From Chloroflexota bacterium (GTDB lineage Bacteria; Chloroflexota; UBA11872): a stretch of DNA of 64,000 nucleotides. The notes beneath the pieces are model-generated. The model worked only from the letters and a program-made list of their open reading frames with translations, did no database searches and had not been told where the DNA came from. The position numbers were made by a program, and so were the translations under genes. Positions 7,458 through 43,699 of the stretch are shown here, one piece after another. The stretch lies in NCBI GenBank assembly GCA_965263175.1, contig OZ253587.1:2889032-2953031 (forward strand), read 5' to 3'. Positions within the stretch are counted from its first letter, which is position 1; each line of letters begins with the position of its first letter.

Positions 7458-9567
7458 CGGCGTGCCTGTCGCCGTCCTGGAAGCCAAGAAGCCGCAGGTG
7501 TCGGTCCAGACGGCCCTCGATCAGGGCCGCGACTATGCCGAGCGTCTCGGCGTGGACTTTGTCTTCGCCTGCAACGGCCCGACGTTCAAGTCGCTCCATG
7601 CCCCGAGCGAGCAACCGCTCTTTCTGAACAACGTCGAAGTCACCGAACCGTTGGCGCCGGTGCGATTGCGAACGTTTTGGACGGGCCGGACCAATGCCGT
7701 CCTCACCGTCCCGCACGACGTGATTGAGTCCCGGGCGCAATTGCTCGATATCTTCGAGCGATTGAATGGCGTGCTGCGGCACGCGGGGATCAGGGCCGGG
7801 CTCGAACGCTTTACCGAATTCGCCAACATCCTGTTTCTCAAGCTGGCGAGCGAAGCCGATCCCACTGACCAGACGTGGAACGAATTGCTCACGCGTCCGG
7901 ACGGCGATCTCCCGAGCTATCTGAATGACTTCGTGATTCCGCGTCTTCGCGACCGCTACGCCAGCGACGTCTTGACCAAAACCCACGTTGGCGGCTCGGC
8001 CCTCAAGGCCATCGTCCACGAACTCAATCCGCTGCACCTGACCGGCGTGGACGAAGACTTGAAGGGCCTCGCCTTTGAGCACTTCCTACGGCGGACCACG
8101 GCGGCCAACAACGATTTGGGCGAGTACTTCACGCCACGCGCCGTCGTGCGGTTCATGGTTCAGTTGCTCAATCCCGCGTTTGGGAAGACCGTGATTGACC
8201 CGTTCTGTGGAACGGGCGGCTTCCTGATCGAAGCGTTCCGGCACCTGGGGCAACAGGCGCCGCGTTCTGAAACCGCATCGCGCGTCCTGCATCACCAGTC
8301 GCTCTTTGGCCGGGAAATCACTACGACGGCCCGCGTCGCCAAGATGAACATGATCCTATTCGGCGATGGGCATTCGGGTGTGGTGCAAGGCGATAGCCTG
8401 CAACGGCTGCCAGACGACGAAGGGTGGTACGACTACGCGCTGTCCAATATCCCGTTTTCGCTTGAGATCGGGGATGACGCGATCCATGCGGTCGATCCCG
8501 ACGCCCGCGGATCGGATCAAGCCTGCCTCCTCCGGTGCTTCAAGAGCCTCAAGGCGGACGGCGCGATGGCCGTGGTGATTCCCGAGGGCTTGGCCGTCAA
8601 TCGGTCGCATCGCGATCTCTGGTTCCGGCTCTTTCGTGACGCGCGGGTTCGCGTGATTGCCACGTTGCCGCGTGGATCGTTCGCGCCGTACACCGAAGCC
8701 GGCACGAAGGTGCTATATCTCACTGACAAGGGCCGCGAACGGACCGACTGGTACTACCACGTCACGCTCAGCGGCGAGAAGGCGAAAGGCCCGTCCATTG
8801 ATATGGACGAATTCCTGTTCTTCTACCAAGCGACGCCCGAGCCGTTGGAGGCGCGGCCGGCCGGCGTTGAAGTGGTGCGCGTGCGCAATGGGAACAACCG
8901 CAACCAATTCTTTGTCGAGCGCCCGTGGAACATCGTTACGCCGAACGTCGTGCAGCTTGGTGAGGTGGCGGACATTGCGAACGGGCAGATGCTCACGGAG
9001 GCGGACGCCACCCCTGGCCGGTATCCGATTATCGGGGGGGGGCGCGAATGGTCGTTCACCCACGATGCGGCGAACACCGAGGGCGGCTGTTTCACCGTCA
9101 GCAAATCAGGGGCCTACGCGGGCTTTGTCTGGTGGCACGAAGCGCCGATATGGGCGTCCGATTGTCTGATCGTTCGCAGCCACGACGAAGACGAGTTCCT
9201 GACGTTTTACCTGTTCCTTTGCCTGAAAGCGAAGCAAGATGAGATTTATCGACGCCAGCAAGGGACCGGCCAGCCGCACATTTACCGCCAACACATTGCC
9301 GACTTCCCCATCCCGCGCGTCTCGCTGGCGGATCAGTGGGCGCAAATCAACGAAGCGAGAGACGTGATGCGCAACCGTATCGAGGCTGAAGAGCAAGAGA
9401 CCGGCGCGCTCACCGAGGCGCTCGACGGCATCGACCGGCTGTATCAGGCCGACGATACCGAGGCGTCGCGCCCGTCACCTCTTCGCGCCGACTACCAGGG
9501 CGCGTTGCCGGAGCAGGTAGCGAAGGCTCTACTCAGACACCGACCGGAAACCGAGCGGCGTGAGTGA
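7269..9567 (+). CDS. Single-chain restriction-modification protein (Type IIG/IIB-like): HsdR_N-type PD-(D/E)xK nuclease domain, gamma-class N6-adenine MTase, HsdS-like TRD. A +1 frameshift near 7430 interrupts the nuclease domain.
   Basis: Frame 7269-7457 encodes EAEVRHQIDRRLEAKGW (HsdR_N start). Frame 7273 continues with PDYTFFADGVPVAVLEAKKP (D...EAK nuclease motif). MTase motif I VIDPFCGTGGFL and motif IV NIPFS follow. The C-terminal HsdS-like TRD includes YPIIGGGREW...CLIVRS. Confidence 0.7.
9034..9042 (+). repeat. G9 homopolymeric tract inside the TRD-coding part of the RM fusion gene (encodes IIGGGRE)
   Basis: The sequence is atcgggggggggcgcg. This is a candidate slipped-strand phase-variation site. 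Confidence 0.6.
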
Positions 9568-9901
9568 GACGCTCACCCGCCGTCAACTCAAGCATATAAT
9601 CCCCCAAATAAAGGACGGAGCCTCGATGTACACACAAGTCACGTGGCAGTTTGGCGAACTCGTTGATGCCCTGTTCCTTCAGAGACTAGTAAGCACAAAT
9701 GACGAAAGACTCACATGGATTTTCGATGTCGATGAAAGCGGCAGGTTATCCACTCGCGGACTGAGAATTGTCCGTAACACTACCATTGTATCGTTGCGAA
9801 CATTCCACGAATATGAGTACATTGCTTCGGCTTTGCGTACCGAAGGAGAGATTGTGATTGAAAAGGACGCTCGTGGAAAGAGCATAGTTAGAGGAAACTA
9901 G
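9560..9901 (+). CDS. Hypothetical protein; overlaps the RM gene stop by 8 nt, suggesting translational coupling
   Basis: 113-aa ORF in low-GC DNA. No recognisable motif. Confidence 0.45.
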   Translation: MSETLTRRQLKHIIPQIKDGASMYTQVTWQFGELVDALFLQRLVSTNDERLTWIFDVDESGRLSTRGLRIVRNTTIVSLRTFHEYEYIASALRTEGEIVIEKDARGKSIVRGN

Positions 9902-10130
9902 ATCCGCCTTTTTATGAATTGCATAGATCTCTTATAGTCATCATATCAGACTCACTAAGCGGCTACGTATTGGGCCGATTCGATGAATGGACATTCAGAC
10001 TCGTCCAATGACCTTCATTAACCGAGCGAATAGCCCGATCCTCCGACCCTCAGGCAGAGTCAATTGCTCGCGGTCGGAGGATGTTATTGGAACTCAACAT
10101 CTGATTCCCTTCAGAATGACTGACTGACCT

Positions 10131-10300
10131 TTGCTGAGCCTACTGCTTGAACGCTTGGACAAGCGGGCGGCAGCCGGACGGCCGGTGTCGGTTGGATTGG
10201 CTAGTGCGGGACGGTTTGGGACAAGCATTGCGGCGCAGATTTCGCAGATCGACGGTCTGCGGCTGGCGGCGGTGGCGGATCCGAACGCGCGAACTAAACC
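10131..10300 (+). pseudogene. 5' fragment of a COG4091-type oxidoreductase gene; truncated paralogous copy of 12002..
   Basis: About 80% nucleotide identity to 12004-12170 (LLERLDKRAAAGRPVSVGLASAGRFGTSIAAQISQIDGLRLAAVADPNAR). The frame then degenerates into AT-rich DNA. Confidence 0.65.
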
Positions 10301-10321
10301 CGATGGCTTCGACGGCAGATA

Positions 10322-10951
10322 TCACCGTGCCCGTCCTCTTTCGACGGCACTCAAACTGACTTCAACAATACAGTATTTCAGATCTTCTTTGATCGTATTC
10401 CATTCTGCGATATAACTGCCTTGGATGCATACTGATTCAAGTTTATTTCCAGTTGGCTTGATAATCTTTCCTGCTATCTTATTATTCGAGCGAAAGTAGG
10501 CGTAAATCCCATCTTTCTTGGTGCCAGAATAGAACAAGTGCTGATCAACCATGACAGCAAAGTATGCTTTCCTAAATCCAGCGCTGACCAGCTGCTCCAA
10601 GAAGGCGATATCTTTACAGAAGCTGTACATCTGTTCAGGATATTGACCATTTCGGGGATACTTTAGTTCAAAGGCGCACGACAATTCACTCTTATCACAG
10701 GAAAAAACGGCTATGTCAATCTCCTTCTTGATGAGATCTGGCTCATTGATGCCAAAGTGTTTTGCATTACGCTCAAATTGCACTTTCTTTTCTGAAAACT
10801 TCTCGCGTAGATAGATTCCCAATTCATGCTGAAAGCTGAACTCGTTATAAACTTCAAAAGCACCATTTCGCACGACATCAAAAAATCCTTCGAGGATAAC
10901 ACCCGCTTCACAGAATCCGTCGACCGATATGAAGCCACCAGATTCACGCAT
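10322..10951 (-). CDS. Hypothetical protein with a PD-(D/E)xK nuclease-like motif
   Basis: EIDIAVFSCDKSELSCAFELKYP matches D-x12-E-L-K. Low-GC gene next to the RM fusion. Confidence 0.5.
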   Translation of the reverse strand: MRESGGFISVDGFCEAGVILEGFFDVVRNGAFEVYNEFSFQHELGIYLREKFSEKKVQFERNAKHFGINEPDLIKKEIDIAVFSCDKSELSCAFELKYPRNGQYPEQMYSFCKDIAFLEQLVSAGFRKAYFAVMVDQHLFYSGTKKDGIYAYFRSNNKIAGKIIKPTGNKLESVCIQGSYIAEWNTIKEDLKYCIVEVSLSAVERGRAR

Positions 10952-11266
10952 AGCTTCTCCTCACATTTCTATACATACGCAGGGTCGGCGACGTGCCCGT
11001 CAAGGCCTTAGGCCGACTTGCCGGTGGCTCGCTTGGAGATTTCGGCGGCTGGCTTGATGCGCTGGGCTTAGACACCGGACAGAGTGTGGCAGGCTAGCCG
11101 ACCCGAATGTAGCCCGCTCCACACCGACCAAGCTGACGAGCTTGCATTCGATTGATGGAGGCGTTGCGGAAGGAGCGGTGAGTAGTGAGTCGTTTTGAGT
11201 TGCGGGGATCCGGGGGGCGGTGGGACATTCCCAGGCTGATATGCTGGTTGCTTACGCGTCAGAGGC

Positions 11267-11710
11267 TTGCCACGATCTCCCCCCCCCCGCTGGCCGCTGG
11301 TTCTCGCCGTCGCCACCCTGTGCATTGCCGCCTGTGGAGATGCCCCACCCAAGCAGCTTACCGTGCAGGCGTATGGCGAATTCTGTGCGGAGTGGCAGGC
11401 TGTCGGTTCCGGTGGGGAGGACAGCGAAGCAACTTGGGGCAACCTCCGCGACACTATCACCGCCAGTATTGAGGCGTACGAGTCCGTGATCCCGCCCGAG
11501 GGTCTAGAGGAGCATCACAAGTTCCGGCTCCGCCTCTACCGTGTCCTGAAGGGCGCTATGGAAACGAAGGACCTCAACGACACGGCCCATGCGGAGGAGC
11601 TGCTCGCTCCGATGATGGTGCTTATGGGTGAGAGCCAGAAGGCCGACGCTTCGCTCTCCGAGGCTGATCGTGCAGTTCTCGTCGCGACGGGCTGCCTGGA
11701 CGACAGCTAG
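11267..11710 (+). CDS. Putative lipoprotein of unknown function
   Basis: Signal peptide with lipobox (LVLAVATLCIAACG). The start region contains a C10 tract. Confidence 0.5.
   Translation: MPRSPPPRWPLVLAVATLCIAACGDAPPKQLTVQAYGEFCAEWQAVGSGGEDSEATWGNLRDTITASIEAYESVIPPEGLEEHHKFRLRLYRVLKGAMETKDLNDTAHAEELLAPMMVLMGESQKADASLSEADRAVLVATGCLDDS
11279..11288 (+). repeat. C10 homopolymeric tract at the 5' end of the lipoprotein gene
   Basis: The sequence is ctcccccccccgctgg. An upstream ATG at 11220 lies in another frame and reads through the tract, so length changes could switch the N-terminus. Confidence 0.6.
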
Positions 11711-12001
11711 CGCCGCCGATCCTTCCTGTGCTTCCCCGTCGCCTGCTGGGCTTGCTTTCGCGGGCCGCGCCGAGGCGGATCAGGCCTGGGCACGGTGATC
11801 GCCGGCGGCCGGACATGTTCGCATGAGGTTCAGTCGCGGTTGACCGGCGGACTCAGCCTACCGCGTGCACCGGTCCTATCGGTGCTACCCGGGCGATAGT
11901 GGGTCACTTTGACATCTGGACGAGGCAAGGCGCCCTGACGCCGGGCCTAAGATGTGCGGTGCAGCCGGACGCGTGCCGGCCCAGCCGCGAGGAAGCTCTG
12001 C

Positions 12002-13342
12002 ATGCTGCGTCTATTGCGAGAACGACTGGAGGCCCGAGTCGCGGCTGGCCGGCCGGTGACGGTTGGGCTGGCTGGGGCGGGGCGGTTTGGCACGAGCATC
12101 ACGGCGCAGATTTCGCAGATCGAGGGGCTGCGGCTGGCGGCGGTGGCCGATCCGAACGCCCGCAACGGGGCGGAGGCGTTGAAAGCGGCCGGCTGGGCGG
12201 CAGAGCAGGTGCGGCGTTGCGAGGGCGCCGCTGAGGTGGGAGCGGCCGTAGCAGCTGGGGCGGCCGTGTTGGCGCCTGACGCCGAGGCGCTGGAGTCGGC
12301 TCCGATTGAAGTGTTCGTGGACGCGACGGGGATCCCGGAGGTGGCGGCGCGGAATGCGTGGGGGGCGCTGCGGCAGGGCCGGCACGTGGTGATGGTGACG
12401 GTTGAAGCGGACGTGAGTTGCGGCTGGGTGCTGGCGCGCGAGGCGCGGCGGCAAGGCGTGGTGTACACGCTGGCGGCCGGTGACCAGCCGGTGGCAATCA
12501 TGGAGCTGTTCGACTGGGCCAAGGCCCTGGGCCTGCAGGTGATCGCGGTCGGACGGGGCACGCGGCGGTACCCGGCGGACCGGCACGGCGACCCGGAGCT
12601 GGCCCTGTCACGGCTGGGCTACGACGTTGAAGCGGCGGAGCGGCTGCGTCTGAACTCGCAGATGTACAACTCGTTCCGGGACGGGACGAAAGCCCAGATC
12701 GAGATGTGCGCGGTGTCGAACATGACGGGGCTACCGCCGGACCGTCGCGGGATGCACGAGCCGTCAGCGGGACTGAACGAGTTGCCCAATCTGTTTGCGC
12801 CCGGTGAAGCCGGCGGTCTGCTGGCACGCGCGGGAGTGGTGGACCTGGCGAATGCCGTTGGGCCGGACGGTGTGACGGCGGTGGCCGAGCACATTGCCGA
12901 CGGGGTGTGGGCGGTTGTGACCTCGGATGACCGGCACGTACGCGAGGACATGCGCATCCACGGAACCCGGGTCTCGCGCGATGACCAGCGCATGGCGCTG
13001 TTTCGCGAATACCACCTGTGCGGGGTCGAGACTCCGCTGAGCATCGCGCAGGCGGCGCTGCTTGGGGCGTCGTCGGGCCTGCCCCTCGAGGCGCCGACTT
13101 CGGAGGTGCTGGCCTACGCCAAGCGCGACCTACAGCCGGGCGACACGCTGGACGGCTCCGGCGGCCGCCTGGTGTACGGGCTGATCGACCGGGCCGAGAC
13201 GTTGCAGGCCGAGGGCGTGCTGCCGCTGGGGCTGGCCTACGGGGCCAGGGTCAGCGAAGCGGTGGCGGCGGATCAGCCGATTCCGGCGGGGTCGGTTGAG
13301 GTTGCGGAAGGGTCGTTTGTGGCGAAGCTGCGAGGCTTGTGA
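12002..13342 (+). CDS. NAD-binding oxidoreductase with C-terminal SAF domain (COG4091, predicted homoserine dehydrogenase-like)
   Basis: N-terminal VGLAGAGRFG Rossmann motif. C-terminal SAF-like region (GDTLDGSGG...VEVAEGSFV). Confidence 0.7.
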   Translation: MLRLLRERLEARVAAGRPVTVGLAGAGRFGTSITAQISQIEGLRLAAVADPNARNGAEALKAAGWAAEQVRRCEGAAEVGAAVAAGAAVLAPDAEALESAPIEVFVDATGIPEVAARNAWGALRQGRHVVMVTVEADVSCGWVLAREARRQGVVYTLAAGDQPVAIMELFDWAKALGLQVIAVGRGTRRYPADRHGDPELALSRLGYDVEAAERLRLNSQMYNSFRDGTKAQIEMCAVSNMTGLPPDRRGMHEPSAGLNELPNLFAPGEAGGLLARAGVVDLANAVGPDGVTAVAEHIADGVWAVVTSDDRHVREDMRIHGTRVSRDDQRMALFREYHLCGVETPLSIAQAALLGASSGLPLEAPTSEVLAYAKRDLQPGDTLDGSGGRLVYGLIDRAETLQAEGVLPLGLAYGARVSEAVAADQPIPAGSVEVAEGSFVAKLRGL

Positions 13343-13463
13343 GCCGCGATTGATGGCCCGTAAGTAGTGAAGATGAAACGTGCGGTCGGGGAAGCCTGAT
13401 CGGACGAACCGAAGTCCGTGACGATTGGGGCCGTCGCAGTGGCTGCCGGAGGTCGTAGCCGGT

Positions 13464-13850
13464 TTAGTCGATGGGTTGGTGAAAGTAGTAGCAGAGGCCG
13501 TCAGGGGCTACGACGAAGAAGACGCGCAGTTGCTTGCCGTTGCGTTCATCCACGCGTGAATCGCCCGGCGAAATGCCGTTGGCTTCGAGTTCGCGTCGCG
13601 CCCGCTCGAGATCGCTGACCAAAATGGCGGCGCCGTCTTGGGTAGCGTCGCCGCCGTTGATGGCGAAGCCGATCTGTACGCCGTCGCGCTGCATGATGAC
13701 CGTTGGAACGGGGCTGTCGCGTCGTTCCACCTCGGTAAGGCCGAGCGCCTGGCCGTACCAACTGGCTGCCTGGTCCAGATCCTCGACTGGTAGCGCCAGG
13801 ACGTTGTCCTGATACGGGAAAGCTGCTTCGAACAGTGGCTGATCGCTCAT
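13464..13850 (-). CDS. VOC-family (glyoxalase/bleomycin-resistance fold) protein
   Basis: 128-aa ORF with the typical two beta-alpha-beta-beta-beta module pattern (GLTEVERRD...VAPDG). Confidence 0.75.
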   Translation of the reverse strand: MSDQPLFEAAFPYQDNVLALPVEDLDQAASWYGQALGLTEVERRDSPVPTVIMQRDGVQIGFAINGGDATQDGAAILVSDLERARRELEANGISPGDSRVDERNGKQLRVFFVVAPDGLCYYFHQPID

Positions 13851-31954: not shown

Positions 31955-32401
31955 CTAGCTGAGCACGTAAGGCACAAGAGCTTCCTTAAGCTTCTGCGGC
32001 ACACTCATATTAGAGTAGCGGCCTTCGCCCGTCCAGATTGAGTTCTTCGGGGCGATATTGGCCTGGCGGGTGGCCTCAACGAGCCAGTCATGCGGCACAA
32101 AGTACCAGCGCTCCCGACGTTCATTGGCAGGGAACACCATGTAGAGATCGCGCTTTTTGTATTTCGAGTCAATAGTAAAGCGCGATTTGAGTTGTACCTG
32201 AAGGGCACGCTGCCGCAGAACGTGGTACGCAATAAAGTCAGCGGCATGCGCATCGTTGACCACGGGCAAGCATATATAGCCAAATCGAGCCAACAGTCCG
32301 GCAACGTGCTGGTAGTTGATCTGCTCCTTCTGAAAACTCGTCAGATCGCTGTACTCAACGGGCTGTAGTTCGAGCACAAGCCCGTTACTGATTACATTCA
32401 T
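31955..32401 (-). CDS. Hypothetical protein, possibly a degenerate PD-(D/E)xK fold (cargo of IS1595 copy 2)
   Basis: 148-aa ORF containing VVNDAHAADFIAYH...LQVQLKS. Low GC. Confidence 0.45.
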   Translation of the reverse strand: MNVISNGLVLELQPVEYSDLTSFQKEQINYQHVAGLLARFGYICLPVVNDAHAADFIAYHVLRQRALQVQLKSRFTIDSKYKKRDLYMVFPANERRERWYFVPHDWLVEATRQANIAPKNSIWTGEGRYSNMSVPQKLKEALVPYVLS

Positions 32402-32621
32402 TGTCGGTCCTTTGCTTTTCGCGCGGCCCTTGCGCGCCGCTCACCTCAGACCCTTTCAAATACTCCCACTCGTCACCATCCTTCGGCGGCGAAAACAATA
32501 ACGCCCTTGCGATATTCTCCGGTGTATCCGATATCTTCTCCGGCATCGGCTTTGCCGGTCGTCCGCGCTTACGTTTAGGCATTGAGAACATCTCCTTCAA
32601 GCATACGGGTCTCAATCCCAA
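32385..32621 (-). CDS. Small basic AT-hook-like DNA-binding protein
   Basis: MPKRKRGRPAKPMPEK N-terminus (RGRP AT-hook core). Confidence 0.45.
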   Translation of the reverse strand: MGLRPVCLKEMFSMPKRKRGRPAKPMPEKISDTPENIARALLFSPPKDGDEWEYLKGSEVSGAQGPREKQRTDNECNQ

Positions 32622-32889
32622 ATCGTAATTGAGCCTTGCGGCTATCTTGACGACTCAGTAAATTACGCAATGCCTTAACAACAGTTTCTTCGCGTATCGT
32701 ACTGCGTTCTTCACTGAGGTCATTGAATACAGTATTGCAAAATGGGCAACAACTAGGTAGTTCACGAGGATTGCACTCATCAGTGGATCGCATAGGAAAA
32801 ACAGCTTCACCACAACAAGATTTACAGTACAAATAAATGGTAGATAAATCTTCAAGGCCAATTATAATACGTTTCTGTACCGCAGCCAC
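32575..32889 (-). CDS. Small Cys-rich zinc-finger protein
   Basis: CKSCCGE ... CCPFCNT paired Cys clusters. Confidence 0.45.
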   Translation of the reverse strand: MAAVQKRIIIGLEDLSTIYLYCKSCCGEAVFPMRSTDECNPRELPSCCPFCNTVFNDLSEERSTIREETVVKALRNLLSRQDSRKAQLRFGIETRMLEGDVLNA

Positions 32890-33845
32890 TATGCCGCTCC
32901 CTTCAATTCTGTGTACGTGAGTTTCTTCCCCAGCATCCCGCGCACCATTGCCGTCATTTGGTCAATCGTATCAAGCTCGCGGTCATTGAACCGGCCCGCG
33001 AATTCTCCGACGTAGCGGTTCAAATGCTTGCCACTCATCTTGTGATACGAACCGTGAAAGCCGCGCTTCATCAGCGACCAAAACGATTCCAGTCCGTTTG
33101 TGTGCGCTTGTCCGTTGACCCACTGGCCGATACCGTGCCTGACGACTTCGCGGTTCGGCAGGCCATGATAGCCCCACCATTCGTCACTGTACACCTTCAC
33201 GCCCGGAATCGCGCTTAGCTCAACAATCCTGTGCAACGTCTTCTTCGTAATGTCTGGAACCACTGTGGCGTACACCTTGCCAGTCGTACGGTCACGAACG
33301 CCTGCGACTGGAATCTTGCCAACCTTGCCGCGTCCAGCCCGTAGTTTCTTGTTCGCATGCTTGTTGATTTCCTTGCCGCCGACGAACGTCTCATCGACTT
33401 CAATCGGTCCAACAAACGCCGGTTGCGCGTCTGTCCACGTCTCGCGAATCCGATGCGCCAAGTGCCATGCAGATTTCTGCGTAATCCCCAGGTCGCGATG
33501 GAGCTTCATGCTTGACGTGCCCTTGATACCCGTCGTCATCAAGTAGACCGACATCGCCCACACCTGATAGCCGAGCTTCGAGTCTTGCATCACGGTCCCC
33601 GTCCGCACGCTGAACCGCTTACGGCAGCCCTTCTCACGGCAACGGTACGGCATCGTCTTATGCTTCGCGCCGGATAGGGCGTTGACGCTCCCACAGTACG
33701 GGCAGGCTGGCTTATTCGGCCAGCGTGTCTCAGCAAACCACTTCTCAGCGGTCTTGTTGTCGGGGAACATCCGCATCACGTCAAGCAACGTGATCCCCTT
33801 GCGGTGCGCTTTCCCCGGTCCTTTTGCCATTTGCAAGTCTCCCAT
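32889..33845 (-). CDS. IS1595-family transposase, copy 2
   Basis: CPYCGS...YRCREKGCRKRFSVRTGT zinc ribbon, then IEVDETFVGG ... YSDEWWGYHGL ... HTNGLESFWSLMKR. Confidence 0.85.
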   Translation of the reverse strand: MGDLQMAKGPGKAHRKGITLLDVMRMFPDNKTAEKWFAETRWPNKPACPYCGSVNALSGAKHKTMPYRCREKGCRKRFSVRTGTVMQDSKLGYQVWAMSVYLMTTGIKGTSSMKLHRDLGITQKSAWHLAHRIRETWTDAQPAFVGPIEVDETFVGGKEINKHANKKLRAGRGKVGKIPVAGVRDRTTGKVYATVVPDITKKTLHRIVELSAIPGVKVYSDEWWGYHGLPNREVVRHGIGQWVNGQAHTNGLESFWSLMKRGFHGSYHKMSGKHLNRYVGEFAGRFNDRELDTIDQMTAMVRGMLGKKLTYTELKGAA

Positions 33846-33950
33846 TGCCTAATAAAGGAAGTATAGTGCCTATGGCGACGTTTGTCAAGGGGATCGAGCG
33901 CGGCAAGCCGTCCGGCCAGCGGCTTGCCGCATTTGGTACGCTCCAACATC

Positions 33951-34067
33951 GGCAGCGTGGCGAAACTGGTATACGCACGGTCTTGCCCTGCGGACTGACA
34001 CTTGTGAGTCTGCGGGGCAAGGCCGTGGCCTTCGGGTCTTGTGGGTTCGAGTCCCACCGCTGCTACC
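33951..34067 (+). ncRNA. tRNA-like element (~115 nt). The 3' half is canonical (UUCG-capped variable hairpin, T-arm GTGGGTTCGAGTCCCAC, 7-bp acceptor, discriminator A). The 5' half is aberrant or contains an insertion.
   Basis: 5' ggcagcg pairs with 3' cgctgct. The D-arm has a GG loop. The anticodon region does not fold into a 5-bp/7-nt arm. No CCA is encoded. Confidence 0.35.
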
Positions 34068-34124
34068 GGTTGACTGCGAGACATTGACCTTGCCATTGGT
34101 TAATGCCAGCCGGAATAGGGAGAT

Positions 34125-34490
34125 TTGATGGATTTGGCCGTAGGTGTATTCATATTTGCGGGTATGTTCCTAATCGCTGTTACTACCATAGTTGTAGCAA
34201 TAAGAGTTGATTTTGTTGAATTGCTTAAGTTTCGTCGTAAAAGACGTATTGAACGCGCACAACGAACATGTCCACATATTGATATGCGAATCGATGATAC
34301 GACAAACAACGTTGGTTATCAAAGCCTATTCATATCGCCCCCAGGAACGGTGTCATGGATATGCACACGATGCAACCTTGCCGTTCTATCGGAATTGGTT
34401 GTAAATCAAAATCAAGCATATTGGTTAGAGAATTGGCCAGAATGGCCTAAGCAAATGAAGAAATTTTCGAAACTTGTTGATAAGCTGTAG
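34125..34490 (+). CDS. Small membrane protein with a zinc-ribbon-like Cys pair (CPH...CTRC)
   Basis: N-terminal TM helix (LAVGVFIFAGMFLIAVTTIVVAI). Low GC. Confidence 0.4.
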   Translation: MMDLAVGVFIFAGMFLIAVTTIVVAIRVDFVELLKFRRKRRIERAQRTCPHIDMRIDDTTNNVGYQSLFISPPGTVSWICTRCNLAVLSELVVNQNQAYWLENWPEWPKQMKKFSKLVDKL

Positions 34491-34689
34491 TTGTCGCGAT
34501 TGTTCGCAATCGTCTAGTAGAATTTTGAATTGTTGAATTTCATCGAGTGTCATGTTCATGCGTCCTGTTGGCATTACCTGCCGCTGTGACCGGGCATCAT
34601 GGGCACTCACGTATGTAAGCTCCTTTCTAAAAAACTCTTTGGCTGCGGCGGGGTGTCGAAGCGCGGCTGTTGCCGGTCCGGGTATTTGG

Positions 34690-34965
34690 CCGGGGCTGGG
34701 TTGCTGAGGGCGCGATCCACCCTCACCCCAACCCTCTCCCTGGCAGAGACCTTTGCGTAACCCGAGGGACTGTTGCCCGGAAGACCCCTCACCCCAACCC
34801 TCTCCCTGGCAGAGACCTTTGCGTAACCCGGGGGACTGTTGCCCGGAAGACCCTCACCCCAACCCTCTCCCACAGGGAGAGGGAGCAAGAGCGGGCCGCA
34901 CCTTCGCGGACGAAGGGCGTTGTGCAAAGGTCCCTGGCAGGGAGAGGGAGCAAGAGGCGTGCCCG
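34690..34965. repeat. Cluster of three MITE/REP-like units
   Basis: Repeated ...ccctcaccccaaccctctccctggcagagacctttgcgtaaccc... units. Confidence 0.85.
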
Positions 34966-36828: not shown

Positions 36829-36984
36829 GGGGCAGCTCCGAGGTGTAGGTTTGCAGCGTCACGGCCCGCCCGTGGCAAATCCTAGCATGGGTGGCGGGCA
36901 TGAATGCGTCGCTTGTCCGAGGGCGCTGCTAGACTCCCCGCCGGCGCCTCTTGGGCGGAGTGGGCCTTGCGAAATCGTGGATTG

Positions 36985-38673
36985 ATGCGTTGCGTCCGTA
37001 TCGTTCTGTCGGTGCTCGTTGCGGCTGTTGCAACGTTTGGGCTGGCGACGCCGGTGCTGGCGCAGTGGCCGACGACCTGCGTTGATCTCAATGACATCGT
37101 TGAGGCGCATCTTGGCAATGATGGCAACGTAGGCATCTATCAGCGCGTCTTTGGCGACCAGGCTGAGCAGGCCTGTCAGAACGATCACCGGGACGACGTG
37201 CGCGGGGTGTTTGGCTGGGCCTTCGACCAAGTAGCGCAAACAACGGATTCGGAAACGCAGGATCTGGCCTGGCCGACCGATTGCGTGGAACTCAACGATA
37301 TTGTTGAGAATCACCTGGGCAACCACGGCAACGTGGGTATCTATCAGCGTACGTTTGGCGCGCAAGCCGAGACCGCCTGCCGGAACGATCATCGGGAGGA
37401 CGTGCGCGGGGTGTCCGGCTGGGCGTTTGGCGGCGCGACGACCAGCGCCGTCGGGCCGCAGCTGGCAATCAATGAGTTGGTCAAGCGATCACGGGCGGCC
37501 GTGCGGTACATCCGTACGTCAGACGAGCGATGTGGCAGCGCGTTCATCGTGACGGCGGACGGCTACGTGGTAACCAACAGCCACGTGCTGGATGGCGCGC
37601 CTCAGGTAGTGGTTGGAACGCACGACGGTCAGGAACAGCACGCGACGGTAGTAGCCGACGATCCCGAGGCCGACCTGGCGCTGCTCAAGCTGCCCGGCGG
37701 CGGACATCCCTTTCTACCGTTTGGAAGTTCAGCCAGACTGGAATTGGGCGAGGATTTGGTAATTCTTGGCTATCCGCTCTGCCTGGAAACCTTGACCGTG
37801 ACTCGCGGCGTGTTGTCCGCCCGCCATCCCGGCTGGCTCCAGACGGACGCCACGGCCAACCCGGGCAATAGCGGTGGACCGGCATTCAACGCACAGGGCG
37901 GCGTGATCGGCGTCGTAACAGTGAAGCTGGGCGGCGGCGCCGTAGATAGGGTGGAAAGCGCGAATTTTCTGCTTGATGGTGACGAAGCGCGGAGCACAGT
38001 TGATGACTGGATCATCCGCCATCGAACTAGAACCCTCCCTCAGCCCGCATCCCCGGCGCCTAGCCCGCCTACCCCAAGCGGTCCGCCTCCGTCGGAGGAT
38101 CCGGACTACATTCGTATCCTTGAGGTGGCTATTGCCCGAGGCGCACCGCAGACCCAAGCGGACGAAATAGCCGCCGACGTCATCTCGCGCGGCACTGTCA
38201 ACGCGTTCCTACATGGCGTTGATGACGGTGTGCAGTACGGGCGTTACGATTGCCGATGGCAAAGTAACCAATGCCCGCTGGCGCCGCCAAAGCCCCCAGA
38301 GCCGTCCGAGCTAATCAAGTCGGTCGGCATAGCCAGGGATTCGGACTGCACCACCGGAAGCGACGCGGGCGTAACGTGGCTAGGGGAACTTCCGGGTTAC
38401 CCTTTACCACAGATATTCTGTGTCGTATACGTCGTAGATAGATGGCCAGGCGGATGGACAGTCCACACCCGATGGGTTTTTCCAGGCAGAGATGAGCAGT
38501 CTACCGAGCCGTGGGTCTGGTGCGACTTCGACGGAGATTGGTGTCGCGGAGGATATATGAAGATTAGATGGCAAAATCCAAATCGATACTCGACGCCAGA
38601 AGCCGGCACGTTAGCCGTTACGCTTTACGTAAACGGCGCATACGTTCGGACTGACTCTTTCTGGATCACCTAG
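36985..38673 (+). CDS. Secreted trypsin-like (S1) serine protease, paralog of 25113..26693. It has two N-terminal copies of the same ~55-aa two-Cys domain and a C-terminal Cys/Trp-rich domain.
   Basis: Signal peptide (MRCVRIVLSVLVAAVATFGLATPVLAQ). 2x WPTxCVxLNDIVExHLGNxGNVGIYQRxFG...CxNDHRxDVRGV. TNSHVL...DLALLKL...GNSGGP. Confidence 0.75.
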   Translation: MRCVRIVLSVLVAAVATFGLATPVLAQWPTTCVDLNDIVEAHLGNDGNVGIYQRVFGDQAEQACQNDHRDDVRGVFGWAFDQVAQTTDSETQDLAWPTDCVELNDIVENHLGNHGNVGIYQRTFGAQAETACRNDHREDVRGVSGWAFGGATTSAVGPQLAINELVKRSRAAVRYIRTSDERCGSAFIVTADGYVVTNSHVLDGAPQVVVGTHDGQEQHATVVADDPEADLALLKLPGGGHPFLPFGSSARLELGEDLVILGYPLCLETLTVTRGVLSARHPGWLQTDATANPGNSGGPAFNAQGGVIGVVTVKLGGGAVDRVESANFLLDGDEARSTVDDWIIRHRTRTLPQPASPAPSPPTPSGPPPSEDPDYIRILEVAIARGAPQTQADEIAADVISRGTVNAFLHGVDDGVQYGRYDCRWQSNQCPLAPPKPPEPSELIKSVGIARDSDCTTGSDAGVTWLGELPGYPLPQIFCVVYVVDRWPGGWTVHTRWVFPGRDEQSTEPWVWCDFDGDWCRGGYMKIRWQNPNRYSTPEAGTLAVTLYVNGAYVRTDSFWIT

Positions 38674-39067
38674 GATTGAGCAAATTGACTGTGCACACGG
38701 TTGGACATATGGACCACTATAGCTGAAGTTAAGTGGATTCTTCATATAGCAATATTCCGTTAGATTGATTACCTTCATTTGGATGAAACTGCACTTTGTA
38801 AACTTCAATATGACCAGACCTTATATCCATTGCTGTGGACCCACAATATGCGGAGAATCGGCTGCCCACGTAGTGATAGTCGAAAGCGGGAGAGCTGCGG
38901 TCGAGCGAGGCGACGTGGTGCCAAACAGTTGCTGAATCACTGATGGACAATGCGAGGTAAGAAGGCAAGGGGCCAAACGCACAGGTCCACTAGCCGTGAG
39001 CATTGGGCACATCAGCGTACCGTAACAGATGGCTCAGGGCGTAGTCAGACAGTGGATAGAGTAGATT

Positions 39068-39367
39068 TCACAAATCAGACTGTTGGACGCAAAAGACCTC
39101 AGAATGATTCTTTATAACCTGCGATATCTTCGGCCATAAAGCCATTACGCCTTCGCCTCCAAGCTCAACAACAGGCGAAAGCGCAGGCCTCATAGACAAA
39201 CCCTGATTTATGAGTATTAACTTTGCAACATATTTTGGCTCTATATCCCATGGATGAGCATCTTTAACGGCCTCAAATCTAACCTGCGAAAATTTACGGT
39301 TCAGTAAAGCGAGAATTGCTGATTTATCACTATCAGTGTATCCTCCGAATTCAATTTCAATACACAA
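39068..39367 (-). CDS. Hypothetical protein in an AT-rich islet
   Basis: 99-aa ORF in a ~45% GC segment (38690-39470). Confidence 0.3.
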   Translation of the reverse strand: MCIEIEFGGYTDSDKSAILALLNRKFSQVRFEAVKDAHPWDIEPKYVAKLILINQGLSMRPALSPVVELGGEGVMALWPKISQVIKNHSEVFCVQQSDL

Positions 39368-39471
39368 GTCCTGAGCCGAAATTGCAGCATCCTTCCGCGT
39401 ACAGCACGGCCAGCCACAGTCACACTACTCTTCTATTGAGCAATGCACCATGTCAGGCCCTCGGGCAGGTT

Positions 39472-40080
39472 TCAGGCTGACCCTACCATTAGCTGGCGAT
39501 AGCGATGGATGGTGTAGGGCCAGTGGTTGTGGCGTTGGGTGTTGCGGAAGTGGGTTTCGTGGCGCCAGAGGACTTGGCGCCAGTCGGGGCGGCGGGGTTG
39601 GACGCCGTGTTCGTGGATGAGATGCCAGACGATCTGTTCGAGGGTGATGCGGCGGGTTGGGAGGTGGAGGCGTGGGAATGGTCTCTCGCCGGTGTAATGC
39701 CGCGGGGTGGCGTGCACATGCAGGTGGCAGCGTGGATACCCGGACCGACTGTTCTGGTCAAAGTGATAGGCGAACACCGGGCACGGGTCGTCGTTATCGA
39801 CGCCAGCTTGGTACGTGAACGTGGCGGCCGTCGTTTCAAGGCGTTTCGAACTCCGGTTCACTTGCAGCGCAATTTCCAGGTTCAAATACATGCCATTGCT
39901 AAGCCGAACTGGCTGCCCGCGGTAGGAAGGCCAGGCAATACGGTGGCCGACGATCAACCTATCGGCACCGAACCATTCAGCTCCGAGGCTTACGTCCGCG
40001 ACCAACTTGGAGACCTCGCGAATGCGCTCCAGGAAGTCCCGGGCAGCCCGCCGGCTGCTAGGCCTCGCTCGGCTCGGCAA
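39472..40080 (-). CDS. Hypothetical ~200-aa basic, His-rich protein: component B, copy 1, of a tandemly duplicated two-gene module
   Basis: Conserved blocks DRLIVGHR, NGMYLN, GYPRxHLHVHATPRHYTGERPFPRLHLPTRRITLEQIVWHLIxEH. About 70% identical to 40305..40904. Confidence 0.6.
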   Translation of the reverse strand: MPSRARPSSRRAARDFLERIREVSKLVADVSLGAEWFGADRLIVGHRIAWPSYRGQPVRLSNGMYLNLEIALQVNRSSKRLETTAATFTYQAGVDNDDPCPVFAYHFDQNSRSGYPRCHLHVHATPRHYTGERPFPRLHLPTRRITLEQIVWHLIHEHGVQPRRPDWRQVLWRHETHFRNTQRHNHWPYTIHRYRQLMVGSA

Positions 40081-40291
40081 GGAGGAAGGCGAGATAGGTC
40101 AGGGAGCGAAATACTGCGTCGCCGTGGTATTGCTCCGGAGGATCACGGTAGATCGCGAGAAACTCATCGGCCGTCAGGCCGAAGTGCCGCTGCGCATCGC
40201 GGTCTAGCGCCTGCCGGACCTCTTCGCGCGTAACCATGACGTGTTCGTATTCGTCGGGCAACCAGTCGGGCCGCGTCTCGGTAGTTGGTAC
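40058..40291 (-). CDS. Hypothetical ~77-aa acidic protein: component A, copy 1. Probably a GTG start; it overlaps the downstream B gene.
   Basis: VVPTTETRPDWLPDEYEHVMVTREEVRQALDRDAQRHFGLTADEFLAIYRDPPEQYHGDAVFRSLTYLAFLLAEPSEA. Confidence 0.55.
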   Translation of the reverse strand, partial: VPTTETRPDWLPDEYEHVMVTREEVRQALDRDAQRHFGLTADEFLAIYRDPPEQYHGDAVFRSLTYLAFLLAEPSEA

Positions 40292-40304
40292 CACTCGCTG
40301 AGCC

Positions 40305-40904
40305 TTAGCTATTGGCCGGCGGGTCAAACGGCCGGTCATAAGGCCAAGGCCTGTTCTTTTGGATGTCGCGGAACCATCCCTCGTGGCGCCACAAGACCTG
40401 GCGCCAGTCGGGGCGGCGGGGTTGGACGCTGTGTTCCTGGATGAGATGCCAGACGATCTGTTCGAGGGTGATGCGGCGGGTTGGGAGGTGGAGGCGTGGA
40501 AATGGTCTCTCGCCGGTGTAATGCCGCGGGGTGGCGTGCACATGCAGATGGGAGCGTGGATACCCAGACTGAGAGTCCCGTTCATAGTGGTAGTCGAACA
40601 CCGGGCGCGGGTCGTCGAGGTCGGGGGCAGCCTGGTAGCTGAACGTGGCAGTCGTCGTTTTCAGGCGTACCGGGTTGTGGATCACCTGCAGCCCGATCTG
40701 AACGTTCAGGTACATCCCGTTGGTGAGCGGCGCCGGCTGGCTACGATACGAAGGCGGGGCCATGCGATGGCCCACGATCAACCGGTCAGGGCGCGTCCAC
40801 ACGTCGCCAAGTTCGGAAGGCACTACGACCTTATAGACCTCGCGAACGCGGTCCAGAAAGGCTTGAGCAGCCCGCTGGCTACTGCGTCTCGCTCGGCTCG
40901 GCAA
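40305..40904 (-). CDS. Hypothetical ~200-aa basic, His-rich protein: component B, copy 2
   Basis: Paralog of 39472..40080. Its start overlaps the end of the upstream small gene by 26 nt. Confidence 0.6.
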   Translation of the reverse strand: MPSRARRSSQRAAQAFLDRVREVYKVVVPSELGDVWTRPDRLIVGHRMAPPSYRSQPAPLTNGMYLNVQIGLQVIHNPVRLKTTTATFSYQAAPDLDDPRPVFDYHYERDSQSGYPRSHLHVHATPRHYTGERPFPRLHLPTRRITLEQIVWHLIQEHSVQPRRPDWRQVLWRHEGWFRDIQKNRPWPYDRPFDPPANS

Positions 40905-41118
40905 TGAGGAATGCGAGATAGGTCAGGGAGCGGAACACCGGGTCGCCATGGTACCGCTCCGGGGGATCGCGGTAGATCGCGAGAAACTCGTCGGCCGACA
41001 GGTCGAAGAGACGCCGAGATTCCTGGTCCAGCGCCTGCCAGACCTCTTCCCGCGTCAGTTCTACGTGTTCGTATTCATCGGGCAGCCACTCGGGCCGCGT
41101 CTCGACGGTTGTTGCCAT
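40879..41118 (-). CDS. Hypothetical 79-aa acidic protein: component A, copy 2
   Basis: MATTVETRPEWLPDEYEHVELTREEVWQALDQESRRLFDLSADEFLAIYRDPPERYHGDPVFRSLTYLAFLIAEPSETQ. Confidence 0.6.
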   Translation of the reverse strand: MATTVETRPEWLPDEYEHVELTREEVWQALDQESRRLFDLSADEFLAIYRDPPERYHGDPVFRSLTYLAFLIAEPSETQ

Positions 41119-41398
41119 TGGGTGTGCCTCGCTGTGCGTGGGTCAGGATAGCGTGGATGGGGGTGGTGCTGGGTTCCTCGCAAGGAGGAGGGCGGAAGGC
41201 GGGATTCCTCGGGGGACCTCGGAATGAAACAAGGGGCGTTTGAGAGGACTCGGGCGTCCTGGGAGCGGGCACCCACAAGGGGCGCCCCTACAGGAGCGTG
41301 TGCGCGGGCTGAGGGGCTGGACGGCGGGGACTAGAATTGGGGAGTGATGAGGTGGGCCGGTGGATGGTCTGGCCGGCGACTGATGGAGCTATGCCGCC

Positions 41399-43699
41399 AT
41401 GCCGAAGATTGAATCGACGCCGGAGCTGATTGAGGCCGCGTATGCCGCGATGCGGGAGCGGCTGGCGGTGGTGCGAGGGCGGCTGGGTCGGCCGCTGACG
41501 TTGACGGAGAAGGTGCTGTACGGGCATCTGGACGATCCGGCGGGTCAGGACCTGGTGGCGGGCGAGAGTTACCTGCAGTTGCGGCCGGACCGGGTGGCGA
41601 TGCAGGACGCGACGGCGCAGATGGCGCTGTTGCAGTTCATGCTGGCCGACCGAGCCAGCGCGGCGGCGCCGACGACGGTGCACTGCGATCACCTGATCCG
41701 CGCGTACAGCGGGGCGGACCCGGACTTGCAACAGGCGCTGCTGGAGAACAACGAGGTGTACGCCTTCCTGAAGAGCGTGTCGGCCAAACACGGGATCGGG
41801 TTCTGGGCGCCGGGATCGGGAATCATCCACCAGGTGGTGCTGGAGAACTACGCGTTTCCGGGCGGGCTGATGATCGGCACGGACTCGCACACGCCGAACG
41901 CCGGCGGGCTGGGGATGCTGGCCTGCGGCGTGGGCGGGGCGGACGCGGTGGACGTGATGGTGGACTTCCCGTGGGAGGTGCTGCACCCCAAGGGCATCGG
42001 CGTGCGCCTGACCGGGAAACTCTCGGGATGGACGGCGCCGAAGGACGTGATTCTGAAGGTGGCGGGCCTGCTGACCACCAGCGGCGGGACGAACCGGATC
42101 GTGGAGTACTTCGGTCCGGGCGCGGCTTCGCTGGCCTGCACGGGCAAGGCGACGATTACGAATATGGGCGCGGAACTGGGCGCCACGACCTCGGTGTTCG
42201 GATACGACGAGCGCATGGCGGCGTATCTACGGGCAACGGAGCGCGAGGATCTGGCGAGCCTGGCGGACGCGAACACGGACCTGCTAACGGCGGATCCGGA
42301 GGTGCTGGCCAAGCCGGAACAGTATTTCGAGCACGTGATCGAGATCGACCTGTCGGAGCTGGAACCGCACGTGGTGGGTCCGCACCGGCCGGACCTGGCG
42401 CGGCCGATTTCCGAGCTGGCCGGGGCGGCGGCGGCGGAGGGGTATCCGGACCAGATTTCGGCGGCGCTGGTGGGCAGCTGCACGAACTCGTCGTACGAAG
42501 ACATTTCGCGGGCGGCCGACCTGGCGCGGCAGGCGGCGGCGCGCGGGGTGAAGGCTCGGGTTCCCTTCCTTGTCACTCCGGGCTCGGAGATGGTGCGGGC
42601 GACGATCGAGCGCGACGGGCAGCTGAAGGACCTGGAATCCATCGGGGCGGTGGTGCTGGCCAACGCCTGCGGTCCGTGCATCGGGCAGTGGCGGCGGGAC
42701 GACATCACGCCGGCGCGCGAAGGCGACCCGCCGAAGCGCAACTCCATCGTCTCGTCCTTTAACCGCAACTTCCCGCGACGGAATGATGGCAGTCCAAACA
42801 CGTTTTCGTTCTTGACGAGTCCCGAAGTGGCGGTGGCGTTTGCGCTGGGCGGGCGGCTGTCGTCCGACCCGACGGCCGCGCCGGTGGGCGGGGACAACGG
42901 GGAGGCGTTCGTGCTGGCGCCGCCGAGGCCGGCGTTGGACATTCCGCCGGGCGGATTCATCGGTCAGCGGTTCGGTTACACGCCGCCGGCGGACAACCCG
43001 GACGCCGTGTCCGTGGCGATCGCCCCAGACAGCGATCGGCTGGAGGCGCTGGCGCCGTTCCCCGAGCGAACGGCGGAGCAGTTCCGCGACATGCCGGTGC
43101 TGCTGAAGGCGGAGGGGCAGTGCACGACCGACGCCATATCGCCGGCGGGTCGCTGGCTGACGTATCGGGGCCACCTGACGAATATCAGCGACAACATGTT
43201 CATTGGGGCCAACAACGCGTTCGCCGACGACGCGGGCGCGGGCTACAACGTGGAGACAGGCGAGGACGACGAGCCGCTGGCGGACATTGCCACCTATTAC
43301 CAGCAGCAGGGCATCACCTGGGTTGCGGTGGGCGACCAGAACTACGGCGAGGGCAGTAGCCGGGAGCACGCGGCGATGTCGCCGCGGCATACAGGCGGCG
43401 GCGCGATTATCGTGCGCAGCTTCGCCCGGATCCACGAGGCCAACCTGAAGAAGCAGGGGATGCTGCCGCTGACGTTTGACGATCCGGCCGACTTCGACCG
43501 CGTGGAGATAGACGACCGGATCACGCTTAGTGACGTTGGCGAACTGGAACCGGGCCGACCGGTGACGGCGACGCTGGAGCATTCGGACGGGTCGACGGCC
43601 ACGATTCGGCTCAACCACACGTTAAACGGGGACCAGATTCGCTGGTTCTGGGCCGGGTCGGCGCTTAATCTGATCCGCGCGGCGGGCGGTAGTGGGTAG
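41399..43699 (+). CDS. acn: Aconitate hydratase (mitochondrial-type/AcnA-like, ~766 aa)
   Basis: Aconitase family signatures: VAMQDATAQMALLQF, GTDSHTPNAGGLG, CGPCIGQW (Fe-S ligand), and the SRxxxxNxxK swivel domain. Confidence 0.9.
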   Translation: MPKIESTPELIEAAYAAMRERLAVVRGRLGRPLTLTEKVLYGHLDDPAGQDLVAGESYLQLRPDRVAMQDATAQMALLQFMLADRASAAAPTTVHCDHLIRAYSGADPDLQQALLENNEVYAFLKSVSAKHGIGFWAPGSGIIHQVVLENYAFPGGLMIGTDSHTPNAGGLGMLACGVGGADAVDVMVDFPWEVLHPKGIGVRLTGKLSGWTAPKDVILKVAGLLTTSGGTNRIVEYFGPGAASLACTGKATITNMGAELGATTSVFGYDERMAAYLRATEREDLASLADANTDLLTADPEVLAKPEQYFEHVIEIDLSELEPHVVGPHRPDLARPISELAGAAAAEGYPDQISAALVGSCTNSSYEDISRAADLARQAAARGVKARVPFLVTPGSEMVRATIERDGQLKDLESIGAVVLANACGPCIGQWRRDDITPAREGDPPKRNSIVSSFNRNFPRRNDGSPNTFSFLTSPEVAVAFALGGRLSSDPTAAPVGGDNGEAFVLAPPRPALDIPPGGFIGQRFGYTPPADNPDAVSVAIAPDSDRLEALAPFPERTAEQFRDMPVLLKAEGQCTTDAISPAGRWLTYRGHLTNISDNMFIGANNAFADDAGAGYNVETGEDDEPLADIATYYQQQGITWVAVGDQNYGEGSSREHAAMSPRHTGGGAIIVRSFARIHEANLKKQGMLPLTFDDPADFDRVEIDDRITLSDVGELEPGRPVTATLEHSDGSTATIRLNHTLNGDQIRWFWAGSALNLIRAAGGSG

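Follow-up and report, generated by a model that had tools for sequence, protein, structure and literature searches.

TumE-TumA is a translation-targeting toxin-antitoxin superfamily, described in 2023 by Durairaj et al. (PMC10584680), in which the toxin gene lies mostly downstream of the gene for a small partner. Six gammaproteobacterial TumE toxins arrested the growth of E. coli and were neutralised by their upstream partners, and one of the six was found to lower the incorporation of 35S-methionine (PMC10584680). Here we report on a locus within a 64,000-nucleotide (nt) stretch of the genome of a Chloroflexota bacterium (contig OZ253587.1, positions 2,889,032 to 2,953,031; hereafter the window), in which two copies of a gene pair, A and B, follow each other on the minus strand. 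We consider it likely that two TumE-like toxin-antitoxin modules of type II stand in tandem at this locus, as members of a large, divergent and unannotated branch of the TumE-TumA superfamily. If so, the superfamily and the operon logic are most likely the same as those already described and do not amount to a new kind of biology; what is new with respect to TumE-TumA is a longer toxin, a three-helix antitoxin family, a near-universal weak toxin start, and variable arrays with gene conversion.

The array consists of four tightly packed open reading frames (ORFs), A1-B1-A2-B2, whose neighbours either overlap or sit 10 nt apart (Table 1). A first-pass annotation of this DNA had described two consecutive A/B pairs at these positions, and all four ORFs were confirmed. 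It had also described a ~78-amino acid (aa) acidic protein whose gene overlaps by ~25 nt that of a ~200-aa basic, His-rich protein, in agreement with the isoelectric points (pI) calculated here, with the 11-15 histidines of B1 and B2, and with overlaps that, in the sequence itself, measure 26 nt for A1/B1 and 23 nt for A2/B2. A 175-aa version of A2 returned by the ORF finder is not the gene, the most likely start being the GTG at 40294, which yields a protein of 78 aa. B1 and B2 are 71% identical across 189 aa (E 2e-99) and A1 and A2 are 79% identical across 75 aa (E 5e-44), in line with the ~70% protein identity proposed earlier for the paralogous pairs, and the two modules align with each other over 728 nt at 80.6% nucleotide identity. 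The final 12 residues of B2, at the junction with AT-rich DNA, deviate from the conserved WPYDPPF tail of the family.

Table 1. Features of the A-B array and its surroundings (positions in nt from the first letter of the window; SD, Shine-Dalgarno sequence)
Feature	Position	Strand	Description	Interpretation
A1	40879-41118	-	79 aa, acidic, pI 4.3, ATG start	putative antitoxin
B1	40305-40904	-	199 aa, basic, His-rich, pI 10.4, TTG start 26 nt inside A1	putative TumE-like toxin
A2	40058-40294	-	78 aa, acidic, pI 4.5, GTG start 10 nt past B1 stop	second putative antitoxin
B2	39472-40080	-	202 aa, basic, pI 10.8, TTG start 23 nt inside A2	second putative toxin
Part of B1 equivalent to TumE (PF20126), ~aa 58-155	40440-40733	-	beta-strands 3-6, HLHVH motif, invariant F-x-RLHLPTRR loop and next helix	mapped via relatives P0121 and P0225 and family alignments
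H119 codon of B1	40548-40550	-		candidate catalytic residue
Near-identical tract in B1	40381-40565	-	185 nt; partner 39557-39741	gene-conversion tract
Near-identical tract in B2	39557-39741	-	partner 40381-40565	gene-conversion tract
SD of A1	41127-41130	-	GAGG, 8 nt before ATG	
Intergenic region, aconitase gene to A1	41119-41398	-		presumed promoter region of A1-B1-A2-B2 operon
Aconitase gene	41399-43699	+	divergent from A1	from ORF list
AT-rich segment between B2 and convergent protease gene	38674-39471	.	46.6% GC; short ORFs only	
99-aa ORF in AT-rich segment	39068-39367	-		
Trypsin-like serine protease gene	36904-38673	+	589 aa	
IS1595-family transposase gene	32889-33845	-		
ORF pair near position matching ParE/HTH_3 genes of locus L043	47142-47681 and 47630-48286	-		

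The assignment to TumE comes from B. The close relatives of B fall into 73 clusters, all at least 55% identical and none with a Pfam domain, the few that carry a source name being Chloroflexota. Searching 1.84 billion representative proteins with a profile of the Chloroflexota B family extended this set to 1,300 representative clusters at E<=1e-3, 191 of them at E<=1e-10. The relatives found in this way are ~190-220 aa long with the same layout, share the motifs FRYxYxR...P..HLHV and LHFPTxRVSLExVIRxLI, and are near-invariant at the positions of Y90, P116, H119, H139, P141, E148 and L171, the conserved core of B1 comprising Y90, P116, H119, H121, H139, P141 and E148. When 96 B relatives were compared with Pfam, TumE (PF20126, formerly DUF6516) was the only family to recur, with 11 members matching at E<=0.1 (best 2e-5) against a chance expectation, by our own calculation, of ~0.0004 such matches for any single named family; the other Pfam families were each matched by one or two members. 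The TumE model of NCBIfam (NF045777) was the only recurrent NCBIfam model among the same relatives, with weak matches in 4 of the 96. One relative, P0121, which is reached by the B profile at E 3e-15, scores 22.8 bits on TumE (aa 75-141 against profile positions 2-60), and another, P0225, scores 23.7 bits against a gathering threshold of 23.4 (aa 81-159 against positions 19-79 of 81). Alignment of the Chloroflexota B family with the P0225 subgroup using hhalign gave a probability of 99.3% (E 2.5e-20) over 177 columns, a full-length alignment, and the conserved His-containing core of B falls within the TumE profile. Judged by these comparisons, B appears to be a member of TumE at the superfamily level, being homologous to proteins that meet the family threshold. 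The earlier suggestion of a toxin-antitoxin-type module, with a small gene upstream and a large gene downstream, is supported by this homology and by the family-wide A-B arrangement described below.

In the structural model of B1 (predicted local distance difference test score, pLDDT, 82; predicted template modelling score, pTM, 0.80), a helix at residues 7-24 is followed by six long antiparallel strands with short bridges at 32-122, a helix at 147-157 and two further helices. The toxin would have an alpha+beta core in which the N-terminal helix packs on a six-to-seven-stranded antiparallel sheet; it would also have a second helix, a C-terminal helical extension specific to the clade, and a conserved cluster of His and Glu residues (H119, H121, H139, E148). 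B, as modelled, and TumE, by its published description, would both be alpha+beta proteins with helices on an antiparallel sheet and with no solved relative: the B model matched no solved fold among PDB structures, and PDB sequence searches with B, B-superfamily and A profiles returned nothing significant, a weak match of B to 3kk4 (E 0.55) being dropped. They differ in length, B having ~200 aa whereas the validated toxins have ~110-135 aa (our estimate from synthetic genes of 398-461 bp), and what B has in addition is ~45 aa of helical extension at the C terminus, closing with WPYDPPF. By analogy with the validated TumE toxins, B would stop growth by blocking translation, possibly as an RNase.

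The His-rich HLHVH motif of B superficially recalls motifs of the HUH type, and might be taken to indicate a non-toxic two-component function in which B is, for example, an enzyme of nucleic-acid processing or regulation that A chaperones or inhibits. Such a function could be tied to the acquisition or maintenance of foreign DNA downstream, as low-GC DNA consistently lies on the 3' side of the module and 3'-end fragments of B occur alone or flanking inserted genes in three related loci (L005, L038 and L039). HUH endonucleases carry the HUH motif on the central strand of an RRM-like fold and a catalytic Tyr on a helix. We rejected an HUH endonuclease or Rep/relaxase identity for B since the model bears no structural resemblance to HUH nucleases and there is no conserved Tyr; nor does it resemble recombinases or any solved enzyme. 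Moreover, the sole recurrent database link of B is to a toxin family, neither terminal repeats nor an integrase were found alongside the module, and the 3' fragments are more simply explained as decayed array members, frameshifted or truncated B genes being present in loci L043-L045. A non-toxic function is therefore, in our view, very unlikely.

The model of A1 (pLDDT 80) shows a disordered but conserved acidic N-terminal tail, RPEWLPDEYEH, followed by three helices at 23-38, 42-50 and 60-72. Close relatives of A form 73 clusters, and comparison of A with sequence libraries and solved structures gave no match. A lies directly upstream of B in 35 of 35 genome loci. A small gene is also found directly upstream of distant B-like genes, both in three individual look-ups and in most of 55 metagenome loci with enough upstream DNA, and it usually ends 6-22 nt ahead of the B-like start. 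When 28 of these distant partners were aligned against the A family using hhalign, the two matched with a probability of 94.8% (E 5.4e-8) over A residues 17-74. Because these upstream partners are homologous to A, A-B is an old, co-inherited unit. The distance matrices of A and B correlate (Mantel r 0.64, 0 of 2000 permutations), and this correlated divergence, together with the opposite charge of the two proteins (pI 4.3-4.5 for A, 10.4-10.8 for B), provides indirect support for an A-B complex. A, being small, acidic and built of three helices, would serve as the cognate antitoxin and neutralise B by binding it directly.

It had also been speculated that RDPPERYH in A could be a HEPN-like Rx6H motif, and this idea was rejected. 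HEPN domains are recognised by a conserved Rx4-6H within a helical bundle of at least roughly 110 aa. A has 79 aa and three helices, and the motif is in the loop that joins helix 2 to helix 3. Many homologues have Q or K in place of R50, and the motif is missing from the distant homologous partners.

The expression signals of the array appear to be built for an excess of A. A1 is preceded by a Shine-Dalgarno sequence and the A genes start with ATG or GTG, whereas B has no Shine-Dalgarno sequence and starts with TTG inside the end of A. This TTG is the sole available start in 32 of 33 distinct Chloroflexota copies of B, the remaining copy (L006) being without any start; in distant loci the first available start of the B-like gene is TTG in 19 cases, GTG in 11 and ATG in 7. 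The weakness of the B start and its location, where A ends or just before, are consistent with toxin translation that is low and dependent on A, and translation of B would probably depend on ribosomes finishing A. The four genes are probably carried on one transcript; a promoter and terminator scan of the region found no sigma-70 consensus upstream of A1. In the L006 copy (~9986-10591) there is no ATG, GTG or TTG at the conserved start, where Ser replaces Leu (TTG), and the rest of the ORF is intact, which leaves either a freshly silenced toxin or a non-canonical start in use.

These starts might also be explained if A and B were a single gene with a ~275-aa product, its two parts being joined by a programmed +1 ribosomal frameshift or appearing separate because of a sequencing error. 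B never starts with ATG or GTG in the Chloroflexota clade, the L006 copy lacks a start codon altogether, and the overlap region is highly conserved, with a codon identity of 0.80. We nevertheless find such a fusion scarcely credible, since distant relatives have two distinct ORFs, the partner ending before the B-like gene begins. The same arrangement in 33 independent copies rules out sequencing error, the two A stops show no conserved slippery or stop-codon context for a +1 shift, and the conserved TTG is accounted for by the conserved I/L-A codons of A.

Several points weigh against the interpretation of A-B as TumE-like toxin-antitoxin modules. The TumE models of Pfam and NCBIfam detect neither B1 nor B2, even with a cutoff of E<=1, which sets them apart from known TumE proteins, and the connection between B and TumE runs via intermediates, each of which has a weak match of its own (at most 23.7 bits). 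More generally, A1, A2, B1, B2 and the 99-aa ORF downstream gave a single chance-level PHROG match when compared with Pfam, NCBIfam, PHROGs and PADLOC. Confidence in the model is low for the invariant RLHLPTRR loop of B1 (pLDDT <50 at 132-139), and the apparent agreement in fold between B and TumE is judged against a verbal description of TumE as two helices on a seven-stranded antiparallel sheet. The mechanism of TumE is itself unproven past reduced methionine incorporation, RNase activity having been proposed but not shown (PMC10584680). Finally, A has no recognisable DNA-binding domain of the ribbon-helix-helix, helix-turn-helix or Phd/YefM type, and autoregulation by A is unsupported because there is neither such a domain nor a structural match. 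Set against these points are the position of the toxin gene directly downstream of that of its small partner, as in TumE-TumA, and the matches of B relatives to TumE models, with one subgroup that passes the Pfam threshold and shows full-length homology to B.

A-B also shares several features with classical type II systems such as RelBE, ParDE and VapBC. In both, a small acidic protein is encoded first and a larger basic one second by genes that overlap or abut, the toxin has weak translation signals, several copies occur per genome in variable, horizontally acquired regions, and orphan antitoxins outlast toxins. However, no sequence or fold similarity of A or B to such families was found, and A shows none of the DNA-binding domains named above.

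The array had been presented as a tandem duplication. The tandem placement stands, but a recent duplication does not: the two modules are old paralogues set in tandem, because B1 and B2 each have closer kin elsewhere over aa 10-114. In this part of the protein the nearest relative of B1 is in another genome (L005, 76%) and those of B2 are in L011, L012 and L028 (80-83%), in each case above the similarity of B1 and B2 to one another. The near-identical 3' halves noted in the first-pass annotation correspond to a 185-nt tract that is 95.7% identical between B1 and B2, compared with 68.5% across the preceding 295 nt of B. Consistent with this boundary, the synonymous divergence (dS) between B1 and B2 is 0.94 over aa 10-114 and 0.13 over aa 115-175. 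An embedded DNA or RNA element was rejected as the cause, as a family-wide comparison showed no raised conservation of synonymous sites there, and the tract is therefore attributed to local gene conversion, which has partly homogenised the old paralogues. Ratios of nonsynonymous to synonymous divergence (dN/dS) have medians of 0.15-0.24 for B and a value of 0.28 for A1 against A2, pointing to purifying selection on both genes.

A scan of species-representative genomes identified 35 loci, all in Chloroflexota metagenome-assembled genomes and often as two or three dispersed copies per genome. The host is thus a different one from that of the gammaproteobacterial TumE toxins, and the occurrence of A-B in variable tandem arrays is a further difference. 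No member of the family was found in phage genomes, plasmids or IMG/VR contigs, and tblastn searches of plasmids with TumE-positive B relatives also returned nothing. Related strains carry A-B-A-A-B and similar arrays with decayed B copies at this locus. In contigs whose A protein matches A1 exactly, the array lies between the aconitase and protease genes, as in the window, and varies in its make-up: L043 has A-B-A-(B fragment)-A-B(frameshifted), L044 has A-B-A-B(pseudogene)-A fragment, beyond which lies a PIN_10/DUF433 pair, and L045 has A-B-A-A-A-B. Elsewhere we observed A-A-B, A-B-A and A-B-A-A-B-A arrays as well as lone 3' fragments of B. In these arrays it is the toxin copies that tend to degenerate and the antitoxin copies that are retained, a common pattern in toxin-antitoxin loci. 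We suggest that the array would expand, contract and decay through unequal recombination and gene conversion, toxins tending to be lost and antitoxins kept.

Downstream of the array the base composition changes sharply, with a GC content of 62.7% in the module and 46.6% in the segment that follows B2, compared with 68% in the flank on the aconitase side, as expected from the earlier description of a lower-GC islet ending in an AT-rich segment with small ORFs. The short ORFs of this segment have no homologues detectable in Pfam, NCBIfam, PHROGs or PADLOC scans, and the 99-aa ORF among them matched none of these collections. The segment lies at a position of variable cargo, with different content in the syntenic loci L043-L045 and in L002. 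The part of it that reaches to ~39157 can be aligned, at 73%, with the DNA that follows the third module of L043. The drop in GC is polar: in the 25 loci among L001-L039 that extend 3 kb or more to either side of the module, a 1-kb window of <58% GC occurs within 3 kb downstream in 16 and within 3 kb upstream in one (Wilcoxon p 5.8e-5). The locus as a whole fits a variable island or hotspot.

This setting bears on a further alternative, which overlaps with the toxin-antitoxin interpretation, namely that A-B is primarily an anti-phage system of the abortive-infection type in which infection, by depleting or displacing A, would free B as an effector, and in which the array together with the low-GC DNA beside it would make up a defence island. 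In related loci the genes directly downstream include those of restriction-modification (a Dam-like methyltransferase with a NotI-family endonuclease in L002, and Type ISP restriction enzymes in L001 and two other loci), a McrB-like AAA_5 ATPase and DUF433/PIN pairs are found nearby, the low-GC DNA is biased to the downstream side as described above, and the locus is hypervariable between close relatives. Conversely, the downstream genes are heterogeneous and include ordinary genes of sugar metabolism, and the absence of the family from the phage, plasmid and IMG/VR collections gives no sign of interplay with phages. In addition, none of A1, A2, B1 and B2 has a match in PADLOC-DB v2 at E<=1, and no PADLOC family recurs among the 96 B relatives. 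The defence-type role raised in the first-pass annotation thus retains circumstantial support from the restriction-modification and other toxin-antitoxin genes nearby and finds none in the PADLOC models, and we regard a primarily anti-phage function as unlikely.

Details of these neighbouring genes are as follows. In L002, the D12-class (Dam-like) methyltransferase and NotI-family endonuclease genes (8673-10504) are on the same strand as the module and immediately downstream of it. In L001, a 1162-aa Type ISP enzyme (10119-13607, minus strand) is encoded ~1.5 kb downstream, beyond an unannotated 312-aa gene. Genes of the DUF433 family recur beside or inside A-B arrays (L044 3758-4952, L005 10688-11777 and L002 10993-11760), and the one in L044 has a PIN_10/DUF5615 partner. 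In L005, DUF433-like and PIN-like ORFs, recognised by eye only, have an intact B on one side and a 3' fragment of B (aa 143-199) on the other. The DUF433/PIN_10-DUF5615 pairs share hotspots with A-B in L002, L005 and L044; they are unrelated proteins, however, and neighbours only, and none is present in the array of the window itself.

The interpretation of A-B as TumE-like toxin-antitoxin modules gives a testable function to a family left blank by current annotation in Pfam, NCBIfam, PHROG and PADLOC. If correct, it would extend TumE-TumA by a longer form of toxin with added C-terminal helices and by a defined, conserved family of three-helix antitoxins, and H119, H121, H139 and E148 would become candidate catalytic residues for a toxin class of unproven mechanism. 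The locus would also offer a natural system for studying how weak starts and gene overlap set the ratio of toxin to antitoxin, and how toxin-antitoxin arrays grow, homogenise and decay. Beyond the proteins themselves, the polar link to low-GC DNA provides a lead on island formation in these genomes. A wider reading, which we consider rather doubtful, is that A-B represents a large, uncharted two-gene lineage (~1,300 clusters at 50% identity) whose toxin has a His-His-His-Glu site, an unsolved fold and a new catalytic mechanism directed against RNA or the ribosome, with surplus orphan antitoxins in fast-evolving Chloroflexota arrays conferring immunity to incoming related toxins and the module polarly marking or stabilising sites at which foreign DNA, including restriction-modification and further toxin-antitoxin genes, builds up.

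Other features of the region concern genes further from the array. In L043, a ParE toxin gene overlapping an HTH_3 gene (2853-3471) lies ~7 kb upstream of the array; the two window ORFs near the matching position (Table 1) have no Pfam match. The convergent gene beyond the AT-rich segment encodes a trypsin-like serine protease (Trypsin_2, E 3.7e-33), and a Trypsin_2 protease gene also bounds the variable region in L002, L043 and L044. The N-terminal part of the window protease contains two tandem Cys-containing repeats of ~57 aa with the pattern WPTxCVxLNDIVExHLGNxGNVGIYQRxFGxQAExACxNDHRxDVRGVxGWAF. Approximately 5 kb past the protease gene, a second low-GC islet (~32000-34700, 45-59% GC) carries a transposase gene of the IS1595 family (DDE_Tnp_IS1595, E 1.5e-33, together with its zinc ribbon).

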